From a virus (taxonomy: Duplodnaviria > Heunggongvirae > Uroviricota > Caudoviricetes), in IMG/VR virus record IMGVR_UViG_2684622669_000017: a stretch of DNA of 5,954 nucleotides; one strand, 5' to 3'. Positions 2,710-5,954 of this stretch are shown one piece after another; positions within the stretch are counted from its first letter, which is position 1, and every line of letters begins with the position of its first letter. The notes below the pieces were generated by a model. That model did no database searches and had not been told where the DNA came from. It saw only the letters and a program-made list of their open reading frames with translations. A program made the translations under genes and the position numbers.

Positions 2710-2942
2710 AACCCCCCCCCATTTTCACAATCAGCAATCAGGATGGCTTTGGCCTCATTCAGTGCCATATCAGCGGTAAGCTGTGCGTAGGCCAGCGAAT
2801 GGGGGATTATTGCCCCTGTATACTCCGGCTCTCTGGTAATGTGTTTTTCTGCGGTTGCTGCCGTGCATGAAATATCAATCAGCGCGCGCATTAGCGTTCT
2901 GATAGCTTCGTCGGCTGCGTCCGGACGGGTGTTATTGCACAT
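2682..2942 (-). CDS. Hypothetical protein (86 aa); possibly the N-terminal part of a gene split by the G9 tract
   Basis: ORF track; ATG at 2942..2940 with GGAGG 6 nt upstream; start overlaps the stop of the Icd-like gene (ATGTGCAATAA). The final 9 codons after the G9 tract (LCVMIVLMP) look like out-of-frame read-through. Confidence 0.55.
   Translation of the reverse strand: MCNNTRPDAADEAIRTLMRALIDISCTAATAEKHITREPEYTGAIIPHSLAYAQLTADMALNEAKAILIADCENGGGLCVMIVLMP
2712..2720. repeat. C9 (plus) / G9 (mRNA) homopolymer at the junction of two overlapping ORFs; candidate frameshift, slippage or sequencing-error site
   Basis: accccccccc at 2711-2720; read directly from the sequence. One extra G would fuse ORF 2682..2942 to ORF 2476..2709 (...DCENGGG-VMRDDRFNALK...), giving about 151 aa. 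Confidence 0.9.
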
Positions 2943-3138
2943 GGTGCACCTCCTGACGAATACGGGCGGCGAATACCATCACGCAGCCAGCCGGTGATTG
3001 TTGACGGGCTTCCTGTTCGCTGGTGGCCACGATGTGAATCACGCGCGGTTGTGCCGTGCTCAGGGCGATAAAACGCCAGATGTATTTATTCAGGTTGTGC
3101 GAGTCCCGCCCTTGCGGGTGTGTGGTATGATTTCTCAT
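2932..3138 (-). CDS. Small protein (68 aa) resembling Icd-like (host cell-division inhibitor-like) proteins of P4-type elements; first gene of the leftward operon
   Basis: ATG at 3138..3136 with GAGGT 4 nt upstream. Translation MRNHTTHPQGRDSHNLNKYIWRFIALSTAQPRVIHIVATSEQEARQQSPAGCVMVFAARIRQEVHHVQ. The W-R-F-x-A...ATSEQEAR...FAAR pattern matches, from memory, the Icd-like small-protein family. It is the 3' end of a 356-aa ORF-track entry whose upstream part I consider non-coding. Confidence 0.55.
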   Translation of the reverse strand: MRNHTTHPQGRDSHNLNKYIWRFIALSTAQPRVIHIVATSEQEARQQSPAGCVMVFAARIRQEVHHVQ

Positions 3139-3175
3139 AGCTACCTCGATACTTCTGCTATCGTTGGTGGTTAGA

Positions 3176-3209
3176 AGCCCTGCGAGTGGTAACGACACTT
3201 GCGGGGCTT
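3176..3209 (-). promoter_or_regulatory. 13-bp imperfect inverted repeat (AGCCCTGCGAGTG-N8-CACTTGCGGGGCT) in the predicted 5' leader of the leftward operon
   Basis: Read from sequence; 11/13 Watson-Crick matches, and both mismatches become G.U pairs in RNA; lies between the predicted leftward promoter and the Icd-like RBS. Confidence 0.45.
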
Positions 3210-3230
3210 TGCATTTATGCGCCTTGATAA

Positions 3231-3271
3231 TTTTAAGGTGTGGCCCACTATATGTTTTAGGTGTGGTCCAC
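3231..3271. promoter_or_regulatory. Tandem operator-like repeats TTTTA(A)GGTGTGG(C/T)CCAC, each containing a GTGG-N-CCAC palindrome
   Basis: Repeat 1 at 3231-3248 (palindrome GTGGCCCAC 3240-3248), repeat 2 at 3255-3271 (GTGGTCCAC 3263-3271), period about 24 bp. They overlap the -10 and spacer of the predicted leftward promoter and lie upstream of the RHH gene. Confidence 0.55.
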
Positions 3272-3337: not shown

Positions 3338-3517
3338 ATGGCAACGGGTACAACAAACGCAAAATCACAAGCTCTAAAGGCTCGTGTACCACACGAAATA
3401 GTAAACGCCATGGAATCAGTGAAAGAATCAGGCGAAAGCACATCACAATTCATCATTACGTCAATGCAAGGCGAGATCAAACGCCGCCAGCGGCGCAAGG
3501 CCAAAGAGCAGGAGTAA
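3338..3517 (+). CDS. Ribbon-helix-helix (Arc/MetJ/CopG-like) DNA-binding protein, 59 aa; candidate repressor of the divergent promoter
   Basis: ATG at 3338 with GAGG 7 nt upstream. Translation MATGTTNAKSQALKARVPHEIVNAMESVKESGESTSQFIITSMQGEIKRRQRRKAKEQE. Beta-strand (LKARVP) - helix A (HEIVNAMESVKES) - G-x-S turn - helix B matches the RHH signature (compare Arc NLRWPREVLDLVRKVAEENGRSVNSEIYQRVME). Palindromic repeats lie upstream. Confidence 0.65.
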   Translation: MATGTTNAKSQALKARVPHEIVNAMESVKESGESTSQFIITSMQGEIKRRQRRKAKEQE

Positions 3518-3872: not shown

Positions 3873-3902
3873 TGTGGCGCTTCGCCACACGGTTGATATA
3901 AT
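3873..3902 (+). promoter_or_regulatory. Extended -10 promoter (TGaTATAAT at 3894-3902) overlapped by a perfect 7-bp-arm palindrome TGTGGCG-CTT-CGCCACA (3873-3889)
   Basis: Perfect TATAAT at 3897-3902 preceded by TG at 3894-3895; -35 is weak (TTGTGG 3872-3877, 19-nt spacer); the palindrome occupies the -35/spacer region like an operator. Confidence 0.4.
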
Positions 3903-3908
3903 TCCCCT

Positions 3909-3979
3909 GCACTGATCCATTTTTTTCGCAGCAGGTTAATTGTTCGCAAGGGCGCTCCGGTAACGGGGCGCTTTTTGTT
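3909..3979 (+). ncRNA. Candidate small RNA (about 70 nt) between its own promoter and an intrinsic terminator
   Basis: Predicted TSS about 7 nt after the TATAAT; transcript ends at the 3952-3979 terminator; no ORF with an RBS in between; contains a possible 5' hairpin CCTGC...GCAGG. Entirely inferential. Confidence 0.3.
3952..3979 (+). terminator. Intrinsic terminator (plus strand): GC-rich 8-bp stem with GUAA tetraloop and U-tract
   Basis: GCGCTCCG-gtaa-CGGGGCGC (one U.G pair) followed by TTTTTGTT (3972-3979). On the minus strand the hairpin is not followed by a T-run, so it is unidirectional. Confidence 0.55.
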
Positions 3980-4006: not shown

Positions 4007-4213
4007 TTACGCAGCCGTTCCGCGCGCTTCTTCCTCGCGCTCTTTCAGCCAGGCCAGCACTTCATCTTCATACCAGCCAACACGACGCAGACCGATTTTG
4101 AATCCTTTCGGGAATTTTCCGGCGTTGATCATGTCCTGTAGCGAACTGTCTGCCTTGATGCGCAGAATATTTTTTACTTCCTGACGGGTAAGTATTTTTC
4201 TGATTGTTTCCAC
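4007..4213 (-). CDS. alpA: AlpA-family phage regulatory protein (transcriptional activator / excisionase-like, winged HTH)
   Basis: 68-aa ORF starting at GTG 4213..4211 with GAGGT 8 nt upstream. Translation ...ILTRQEVKNILRIKADSSLQDMINAGKFPKGFKIGLRRVGWYEDEVLAWLKER aligns with E. coli AlpA motifs (FPK, VGW, E-x-E-[IV]-x-x-W-L). Confidence 0.8.
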   Translation of the reverse strand: METIRKILTRQEVKNILRIKADSSLQDMINAGKFPKGFKIGLRRVGWYEDEVLAWLKEREEEARGTAA

Positions 4214-4712: not shown

Positions 4713-5954
4713 TTACACGGCACGGATACCCCTTTTACCACTGGCTATGGTCACTCCGGTAGCTGCGGCCTCTACAAATTCCCCCCACCAGCGCATAAGC
4801 ACCACGCGCTTTTCCAGGTAGTTACTTCGGTTATATGCTCGCCTTACCTCGTTCGTGTCCACGTGTGCGAGTGCGGCCTCGATTACGTCCGGCTCGAATC
4901 CTTCCTCGTTCGCTGCTGTACTGAATATGGCGCGTAATCCGTGAGACACCAGCACACCAGCGTAACCCATCCGGCGTAATGCAGCGTTAGCGGTCTGGCT
5001 GCTCATTGGTAGCATTGGATTTTTAAGGCTGGGAAAAACATGTTCCCTGTGTGCGCTGATTGGCTTCATGGTTTCCAGTACAGCCATAGCCTGACCGCAA
5101 AGGGGGATCACATGGTCACGGCGCATCTTCATGCGTCCGGCTGGAATCGTCCAGGTTTCGGCATCGAGATCTATTTCTTCCCAGCGTGCGGCGGCTGCTT
5201 CGGCTGGGCGTGCTACGGTCAACAGTTGCCACTCGATCAGCAATCTGGTTTGCCGTTCTATGCTGGCGACCGATAAATCGTGCATTAGCTGCGGTAGCTG
5301 TTCCGGTCGGATGGTTGGCATGTGCTTTTTGGTGGGTGAGGGAAATGCCTTGCGGACGTTAGCAGCGGTGTTGATGTCAATCAGCCCACTGTTGGCGGCA
5401 AAATCCATCACTTCATTGATGCGCTGCAAAACGCGTTTCAGAGTTTCCAGGTTGCCGCGTGCTTTAATGGGTGTGAGTATCTCAACAAAGCGGCGAGCGG
5501 TGAGGGTATCTATTGGCGTTTTTCCGATGTACGGGAATACGTATTTTTCCATGGATCGCCAGATATCCTTAATCGTGTTGTAAGCGAGATTCTGGCCTTT
5601 TTTCATCTCGTACCAGTCAGAGGCAACTTTTTCGAACGTGTTGCCCTTTTTCCGACTCTCTGCTTCACGTTTCCGGCGTTCGTGGTCCTGTGGGTCAACT
5701 CCCTTCGCTATGAGTGACCTGTATTCATTCCGTCGTTCTCTGGCATCGGACAGGGAAACATCATTCAGCGATCCGAGGCTGATGATAGTCCGTTTTTTAT
5801 CTGCCGGGCGGTAGTACGTAAAACGCCAGATTTTTGATCCGGAGGGTTTCACCAGAAGAAATAATCCTCCGCCATCCTGCAGGGTGTATTCCTTTTCCCC
5901 TGGTCGTGCGTTTTTGATCTCCGTAATAGTTAGTGGGGTGGTTTTTCGTGCCAT
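4713..5954 (-). CDS. int: Site-specific tyrosine recombinase/integrase, P4 family (N-terminal arm-binding DUF4102-type domain plus catalytic domain)
   Basis: 413-aa ORF; ATG is the last three nucleotides of the window (5954..5952); TAA at 4715..4713. N-terminus MARKTTPLTITEIKNARPGEKEYTLQDGGGLFLLVKPSGSKIWRFTYY is typical of P4-type integrases (compare E. coli IntA). Catalytic motifs are present: R in TVARPAE, HGLRAIF (H-x-x-R), and tyrosine in RRAYNRSNY. Confidence 0.92.
   Translation of the reverse strand: MARKTTPLTITEIKNARPGEKEYTLQDGGGLFLLVKPSGSKIWRFTYYRPADKKRTIISLGSLNDVSLSDARERRNEYRSLIAKGVDPQDHERRKREAESRKKGNTFEKVASDWYEMKKGQNLAYNTIKDIWRSMEKYVFPYIGKTPIDTLTARRFVEILTPIKARGNLETLKRVLQRINEVMDFAANSGLIDINTAANVRKAFPSPTKKHMPTIRPEQLPQLMHDLSVASIERQTRLLIEWQLLTVARPAEAAAARWEEIDLDAETWTIPAGRMKMRRDHVIPLCGQAMAVLETMKPISAHREHVFPSLKNPMLPMSSQTANAALRRMGYAGVLVSHGLRAIFSTAANEEGFEPDVIEAALAHVDTNEVRRAYNRSNYLEKRVVLMRWWGEFVEAAATGVTIASGKRGIRAV

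Follow-up and report, generated by a model that had tools for sequence, protein, structure and literature searches.

The Icd-like operon and its inverted repeat

The stretch of DNA analysed here, 5,954 nt from the IMG/VR virus record IMGVR_UViG_2684622669_000017 and called the window below, is part of an integrated phage-satellite island resembling the phage-inducible chromosomal islands (PICI). Its leftward replication operon begins with a gene for an Icd-like protein of 68 amino acids (2932-3138, - strand; NF033153, 71 bits) and ends with a RepA-family helicase gene (558-1973, - strand; AAA_25), whose product is 23% identical to IncQ RepA over 201 amino acids (E 1e-6). The small open reading frames (ORFs) after the Icd-like gene overlap, at 2942/2932, 2709/2682, 2483/2476 and 1973/1970. 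A sigma-70 promoter predicted for this operon (TTGACG-18-TATAGT, 3276-3247, - strand) has its transcription start site (TSS) near 3240, so that an inverted repeat at 3176-3209 lies within the DNA of the predicted leader. The preliminary description had placed a hairpin here, between the start site and the Shine-Dalgarno sequence of the Icd-like gene (GAGG, 3144-3147, - strand), and the promoter bears out this placement. The repeat very probably regulates the Icd-like/replication operon.

Folding with RNAfold confirms a stem of 13 bp on the + strand, where the pairs 3176-3188/3196-3208 close a loop of 7 nt (3189-3195) rather than the 8 nt first given, at -24.2 kcal/mol with a z-score of -7.2. 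None of 200 shuffles is as stable, and two extra pairs extend the stem to 15 bp (3174-3188/3196-3210). The earlier statement that all pairs are Watson-Crick or G.U is right for a + strand transcript and wrong for the leftward leader RNA. Two G.U pairs of the + strand are C.A mismatches on the - strand, so the stem is broken in the leader orientation, where it splits into 5+2+4 pairs with -15.0 to -16 kcal/mol and a z-score of about -3.8 to -3.9.

A predicted antisense RNA of two stem-loops

We consider it likely that a cis-antisense RNA of about 75 nt, running from about 3139 to about 3213 on the + strand, includes the hairpin as its stem-loop II. The computed support comes from the fold and the strand that carries it, from its conservation and covariation, from the fact that it is complementary to the ribosome-binding site (RBS), and from a reciprocal similarity to two known RNAs, SymR and RepX. 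As in other cis-antisense RNAs, a stable and conserved structure stands opposite the translation-initiation region of the target. On the + strand, 3137-3220 folds into two adjacent stem-loops with -40.8 kcal/mol and a z-score of -6.6, while the sense leader (3240-3136) has -25.1 kcal/mol and a z-score of -2.2.

Stem-loop I (3139-3173, + strand) is made of an outer stem, UAGCUACC/GGUGGUUA at 3139-3145/3166-3172 with two G.U pairs, and an inner stem, CGAUA/UAUCG at 3147-3151/3159-3163, in which distant relatives show A-U to U-A swaps; the fold of the whole segment adds the pair U3138-A3173. To this stem-loop the Shine-Dalgarno sequence of the Icd-like gene, presumably the target site, is complementary in full; the anti-Shine-Dalgarno CCUC stands at 3144-3147 and in a distant subfamily is located in the apical loop. 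The apical loop (3152-3158 in the window) is hypervariable, and the block UAUCGAGGUAGCUAUG around the Shine-Dalgarno sequence is nearly invariant in close relatives. Stem-loop II (3174-3210, + strand) has 15 bp including G.U pairs and the loop 3189-3195, with an upper stem and loop that are hypervariable between islands. A short U-rich 3' tail, UGCAUUUAUG, follows at 3211-3220 on the + strand. Homologue tails are U-rich as well, for example GUUGCGUUUUUU and UUUGCUUUUUU; runs of U6-U8 stand 3-5 nt past the stem in several relatives, and a terminator-like call is made on the equivalent of the + strand in locus L009 (L numbers are those of our locus collection). Comparison with SymR and RepX would put the 3' end near 3213.

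The putative antisense promoter is an extended -10, TGgTATGAT (3123-3131, + strand; hexamer 3126-3131), within codons 3-6 of the Icd-like gene, and from the analogy with known systems we infer that it drives the RNA. Across relatives the -10-like hexamer reads TATGAT, TATAAT, TATAGT, TATGCT or TAGACT, with T1, A2 and T6 kept in all. Its counterpart in symR is TAGAAT, 7 nt before the annotated +1, and that of RepX is TAGGCT. The hexamer occupies ORF positions 14-19 in symE, in IncQ repA and in the distant icd subfamily; the N-terminus in the subfamily of the window is two codons shorter, which shifts the predicted +1 to A3139, the base where the alignment of the SymR model begins in L079. Directly upstream of this putative -10 there is also a G+C-rich inverted repeat, CCCGC-CCTT-GCGGG (3105-3118), which falls in codons 7-11 of the Icd-like gene and is invariant in close relatives.

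On the opposite strand, sense promoters at an equivalent distance are predicted in other promoter modules (L079 and L061). Since the predicted sense TSS is 100-110 nt ahead of the ATG in the window and in these two loci, the leader would hold the full complement of the antisense RNA. The leader carries only a weaker complement of the structure, which we presume to be the target.

Strand preference and covariation in homologues

We then present the evidence from 89 loci encoding relatives of the Icd-like protein, 80 of them from IMG/VR and 9 from species-representative genomes (Escherichia ruysiae, Cedecea, Edwardsiella, Citrobacter, Enterobacter, Superficieibacter, Rosenbergiella, Intestinirhabdus and Rahnella). 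Upstream of icd, a block CTTCTAACCACCAACGATAG-N6-TATCGAGGTAGCTATG is almost invariant among close relatives, and the hairpin adjoining it is fixed in position and extensively changed in sequence. Among 46 close relatives there are 13 distinct versions of the 7-nt loop of stem-loop I and 16 of the upper stem and loop of stem-loop II, with only 4-6 versions of the flanking blocks of 16-17 nt.

Two comparisons of the strands were made with no alignment at all. All 30 distinct hairpin variants are more stable in the orientation antisense to icd, with means of -23.8 against -16.0 kcal/mol, and so are all 52 distinct 80-nt segments, with means of -36.2 against -22.2 kcal/mol. Among the 52 segments, an antisense-strand structure contains on average 4.9 G.U pairs and a sense-strand structure 0.44, and A.C 1x1 mismatches number about one per sense structure and none on the antisense strand. 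Single substitutions in L047, L018 and L082 illustrate this, each keeping a G.U pair on the antisense strand and making a mismatch in the leader.

The pairing itself is conserved with compensatory changes in related elements, as a covariation check proposed at the outset could show, and these changes place the repeat far beyond chance. RNAalifold on an unguided MAFFT alignment yields 16 consensus pairs, 10 of them with compensatory changes. A covariance model, R1, was then built and used to re-align 54 sequences (alignment A2). Standard pairs fill 97.7% of its 1414 cells, and both partners vary in 14 of 27 pairs. In 500 shuffles no measure is ever reached, and sliding the partner by 1-3 columns leaves 32-53% paired. 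For the same cells, 211 are G.U and 4 are A.C, and the complementary strand is 83.1% paired. Compensatory changes are found in 10 of the 14 pairs of stem-loop II; helix 1 is 98.8% paired, with A-U to U-A swaps at the third inner pair.

Likeness to RepX and SymR

RepX is a very stable 75-nt RNA that forms two stem-loops and lies opposite both the RBS and the start codon of repA-repC as an antisense transcript (PMC8136791, citing Kim and Meyer 1986); it sets the copy number of IncQ plasmids, has a short tail and is a FinO ligand (PMC8136791). SymR has its promoter within symE and needs neither Hfq nor RNase III to repress the synthesis of SymE (PMC1891008). An Rfam search of the whole window at E <= 1 gives only chance-level microRNA and snoRNA matches elsewhere and none at the hairpin site, and the informative weak matches are seen only in searches of short stretches. 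In a search of 181 nt, RF00043 matches 3137-3209 of the window on the - strand over its full model (23.1 bits, E 0.035), and it scores L079 at 12.6 bits. When mapped on IncQ1 plasmids, the RF00043 consensus proves to be the repA sense strand, at 384-458 in AP011959 (the IncQ1 plasmid used for the comparison with RepX, L169/L170), ending in the repA start ATGGCTAC; the actual RepX antisense RNA therefore corresponds to the + strand of the window. It follows as a separate observation that the RF00043 model, named 'R1162-like plasmid antisense RNA', appears to represent the target strand rather than the antisense RNA. The SymR model, RF01809, matches seven relatives in full and antisense to icd at 24.2-36.7 bits, with E of 6e-6 and 3e-5 in searches of 131 nt.

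The similarity is reciprocal. In 14 kb of the K-12 genome the best match of R1 is the annotated symR on the same strand (7839-7923, + strand; 22.1 bits, E 9e-5), and on the IncQ1 plasmid R1 finds the position of RepX (459-371, - strand; 24.7 bits, E 1e-6). The linker GUUGGUGGUUAG is identical in RepX and in the window RNA, and SymR reads GAUUGUGAUUAG there.

With RepX the window shares an RNA strand antisense to the RBS, two stem-loops and the cover of the Shine-Dalgarno sequence at 3144-3147; both would also measure about 75 nt and end in a short, U-poor tail. Both RNAs are complementary to the RBS that heads a replication operon with a RepA-family helicase, both have their promoter, putative in our case, within the first codons of the target gene, and RepX is bound by a FinO-domain protein, while islands of the window's type often encode one. 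On the other side, repA comes first in IncQ, whereas here the Icd-like gene does and the helicase is five ORFs downstream; the host is an integrated phage satellite/PICI-like island instead of an IncQ plasmid; the stem-loop sequences besides the linker are unrelated to RepX and hypervariable between islands; and the RNA predicted for the window's subfamily ends one base short of the AUG. The likeness to SymR (77 nt) is in the architecture, namely a two-tier stem-loop I, a UUAG junction, a long stem-loop II and about 3 nt thereafter, and in a promoter, putative in our case, inside the target ORF, with the -10 at ORF positions shared with the distant subfamily. In many relatives the apex of stem-loop II, GUGUUAGCGCAC, is close to GUGUUGGCGCAC of SymR. 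The targets differ: SymE is an AbrB-fold toxin, for which SymR is the type I antitoxin, and the Icd-like protein has no similarity to it (BLASTP against K-12 SymE, E 14); symE is an SOS-induced gene in a restriction cluster rather than part of a satellite replication operon.

Taken together, the window RNA probably functions like RepX and SymR and is probably a distant relative of both. It falls outside both Rfam families by threshold and has a different target gene, and its kind would be that of a cis-antisense control RNA.

Several points weigh against this assignment. The score for RF00043 is 23 bits against a gathering threshold of 55, those for SymR are 24-37 bits against 61, so that neither threshold is reached, and the window's own variant is unmatched by the SymR model at E <= 10. 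The -10-like element stands without a -35 and was not reported by a promoter scan, in which extended -10 elements are not scored; furthermore it lies in conserved His-Thr codons, and its conservation could therefore stem from the protein. The stem is of the G+C-rich kind expected of an intrinsic terminator; after it, the U-tract of the window is interrupted (UUUGCAUUU) and the terminator scan made no call there; SymR and RepX are also without a U-run after the stem (PMC8136791 for RepX). Alignment A2 was fitted to a + strand model and is thus biased toward the structure, for which reason we rely first on the alignment-free result and let A2 only back it up. The strand result is independent of A2, because both folding comparisons, of 30 hairpins and of 52 segments, were free of alignment. 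Lastly, a gene for a ProQ/FinO protein is absent from most contigs carrying the module.

Alternative explanations

The alternative that survives best, to which we give only a small chance, is that the hairpin of the sense leader RNA itself acts, as a stabiliser, a processing site or a transcription attenuator, which was the first of the roles proposed in the preliminary description. The repeat is indeed downstream of the predicted leftward promoter and hence in the leader RNA, which still folds there, with -15 to -16 kcal/mol and a z-score of about -3.8; yet a weaker complement of this kind is also expected of an antisense RNA, as its target structure. Against a function of the leader hairpin, all 52 homologous segments fold worse on the leader strand, and the 211 cells counted above are C.A mismatches in the leader, compared with 4 of the opposite kind. 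In addition, the module is built like SymR and RepX, and its matches to both are in the antisense orientation. Against an attenuator or terminator on the sense strand, a candidate that we reject, there are not only the C.A mismatches but also the lack of a U-run, since only UUCUAACC follows the stem in the leader and no intrinsic terminator can be formed.

Slightly less probable again is a structure of the + strand within a longer rightward transcript, where it would serve as a 5' untranslated region or attenuator of the YlcI/YnfO-family gene (3338-3517, + strand), which diverges from the leftward operon, or as a terminator insulating this gene against antisense read-through. The weak U-tract makes read-through toward 3338 plausible, and 70 of 87 loci have the YlcI/YnfO gene in divergent orientation, with little variation in distance. 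However, the module travels with icd rather than with YlcI/YnfO, and homology between islands breaks 10-15 nt past the stem; the same hairpin stands beside YlcI proteins that are just 55% identical, 17 loci have the RNA and no detectable YlcI, and in L171 the module lies between two leftward genes with no rightward gene nearby. The extent of the module moreover coincides with the SymR and RepX models of 75-77 nt.

We hold it to be very improbable that the inverted repeat works as a double-stranded DNA operator for a second regulator, as had also been suggested. It does adjoin a regulated promoter region, but its half-sites vary widely while compensatory changes keep the pairing, which argues for a folded single strand and not for a sequence recognised by a protein; the asymmetries are almost exclusively G.T on one strand, and the type of hairpin is independent of the type of neighbouring regulator. 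Just as remote is a role of the + strand hairpin in single-stranded DNA, for example as an initiation (priming) signal of IncQ-like replication: DNA hairpins tolerate G.T pairs as well, IncQ replicons use hairpin ssi sites and the island has an IncQ-type RepA helicase, but the iteron cluster that is the likely origin (about 345-560) is 2.6 kb away, the element is tied to the icd RBS in every context, and the match to the SymR and RepX RNA models is full-length, including stem-loop I with its anti-Shine-Dalgarno.

Comparison with FinP and C4

Besides RepX and SymR, two other RNAs deserve comparison with the predicted antisense RNA. FinP of F-like plasmids is likewise a two-stem-loop antisense RNA, of about 79 nt, over the RBS of a first regulatory gene, traJ, and it has a dedicated FinO-domain chaperone. 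FinP allele specificity resides in the loops. RepX has been described as FinP-like (PMC8136791). The FinP model gives no match at the hairpin site at E <= 10, and unlike the F-like plasmids, only part of the islands have a FinO-type chaperone gene.

Because of the Icd-like gene, a C4 RNA of the P1 type or a CI-type RNA of P4 was the candidate considered first. In the immI region of P1, C4 RNA blocks the icd RBS and thereby controls the downstream genes (icd-ant). C4 of P1/P7 (RF01695) has in common with the RNA predicted for the window an action at the icd RBS; it differs in being processed from the transcript of its own target and in acting by short loop complementarity. This candidate was rejected, as the C4 model has no match in the window at E <= 1 nor at the site at E <= 10, and the strand is wrong for an RNA processed from the leader. 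One locus of the collection, L087, has a genuine C4 RNA at 1735-1939 on its + strand (RF01695, 72.7 bits, above threshold) together with an a1/b1 target element (45.5 bits). It lies just downstream of the Icd-like gene and the RepX/SymR-like RNA lies upstream, so the two RNAs are distinct.

Distribution of the element

Overall, the element turns up in 1405 of 5426 complete E. coli genomes, with up to six copies in each, and no non-coding RNA feature is annotated under the match among the places listed. Strain OkiPb01701 is 100% identical to the window across 3120-3216. In plasmid records there are only five matches. A blastn search of 3090-3260 against 50,697 phage records gives no match, and tblastn with the Icd-like protein in the phage records finds a single one, LR881103, which also contains the RNA module. 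The copy in this 'phage' record (vB_KppS-Ant, L091), which R1 found outside its training set, is at 3890-3970 on the - strand, inside the ORF of a hypothetical protein. Literature searches on antisense RNAs of Icd-like genes or of PICI, on FinO in connection with islands or satellites, and on the Esr41 and Pas small RNAs turned up nothing that describes the window RNA.

The RNA module follows icd in inheritance, independently of the promoter and of the neighbouring regulator. The YlcI/YnfO gene is divergent at 187-205 nt from icd where detectable, and YlcI/YnfO proteins 44-64% identical occur beside Icd proteins 92-98% identical, a pattern that fits a repressor/operator specificity module open to exchange; one hairpin type is found with different YlcI types. 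In strain G6/7 (L171) icd is internal to an int-alpA-...-icd operon, and the module (R1, 42.6 bits) occupies the intercistronic junction just before icd, where stem-loop II reaches into the 3' end of the preceding ORF. Only one locus, L035, has two copies, and the versions are very different. The second copy (672-753, - strand), outside the R1 training set, has beside it another YlcI-like gene and what looks like a degenerate icd-like start. Some E. coli genomes (hits H30, H55 and H56) match the half with stem-loop II only, corresponding to 3162-3216 of the window, with 94-96% identity.

Other features of the island

The intergenic region of the window is 99.5% identical to that of an island at tRNA-Pro/yejM of E. 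coli SA53-3 (L001), which also codes for a single-stranded DNA-binding protein (SSB), a ProQ/FinO-family protein, PerC regulators and a small terminase. Its ProQ/FinO-family gene (5191-5727 in L001) is about 1 kb left of the start of the window, and close relatives of it are on at least 21 of the 80 icd-bearing IMG/VR contigs. It is plausible, by analogy, that the island ProQ/FinO protein is a chaperone partner of the antisense RNA; as the co-occurrence is partial, we keep this as a possibility outside the core claim.

Rightward of the YlcI/YnfO gene, the window contains an AlpA-type regulator gene (4007-4213, - strand) and a tyrosine integrase gene (4713-5954, - strand). Two direct repeats of 22 nt, ATAATTTTAAGGTGTGGCCCAC and ATATGTTTTAGGTGTGGTCCAC, which share the core AGGTGTGGnCCAC, extend over the -10 and -35 predicted for the leftward operon (3227-3271, no strand assigned) and are probably operator sites of the island regulator. 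The stretch 3227-3271 is mosaic between islands, like the divergent YlcI/YnfO gene. No Pfam family was found for the small ORFs of the leftward operon. Homopolymer C runs are inside them, C9 at 2712-2720 and C7 at 2371-2377 on the + strand; the lengths of these ORFs differ from the annotation in the near-identical SA53-3 island, so that frameshifts or sequencing errors are possible. Directly past the RepA helicase gene, an iteron-like cluster at about 345-560 holds TTTTATTCCTCACTTTTTG at 374-392, 457-475 and 542-560, further copies of CCTCAC, and an inverted pair of 23 nt at 460-505. The cluster is probably the replication origin of the island.

Proposed mechanism and significance

As we infer it from these comparisons, the RNA would be transcribed rightward from the extended -10 in the first codons of the Icd-like gene, for about 75 nt on the + strand, and would fold into two adjacent stem-loops, ending just past stem-loop II. 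Being perfectly complementary to the leftward mRNA leader including the Shine-Dalgarno sequence, it may pair with the leader, probably beginning via the variable loops, and block ribosomes at the Icd-like gene. Because the ORFs overlap as far as the RepA helicase, repression would spread to the replication genes by translational coupling or polarity, and this would parallel the action of RepX on repA-repC and of SymR on symE. Stem-loop II with its short tail would supply stability and the 3' end of the RNA, and it may bind a chaperone of the ProQ/FinO type; the hypervariable loops could set the specificity of each island.

A broader reading, which we put forward tentatively and regard as possible though rather doubtful, takes RepX, SymR and the window RNA as branches of one portable counter-transcript cassette, fused to the unrelated first genes repA, symE and icd-like. 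Its unit would be the promoter-bearing first codons, the RBS and the two-hairpin antisense RNA. If this holds, including its consequences for satellites, the cassette would be a lock resembling those of type I toxin-antitoxin systems on both an Icd-like cell-division inhibitor and satellite replication, the loops would place every co-resident satellite in an RNA-based immunity or incompatibility group of its own, and satellite ProQ/FinO proteins would be dedicated chaperones.

For annotation, the case teaches that a strand-blind reading of a 'leader' hairpin can pick the wrong transcript. For the islands themselves, the RNA, if it is made, would be a widespread and overlooked post-transcriptional brake on the replication operons of PICI/P4-like satellites, which shape phage resistance and gene transfer. 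It would also be a natural candidate ligand for satellite-encoded ProQ/FinO proteins and would bring SymR, an antitoxin encoded in the chromosome, and RepX, which controls copy number in IncQ plasmids, together under one type of cassette, and it would offer a simple test system for the avoidance of cross-talk between co-resident satellites.

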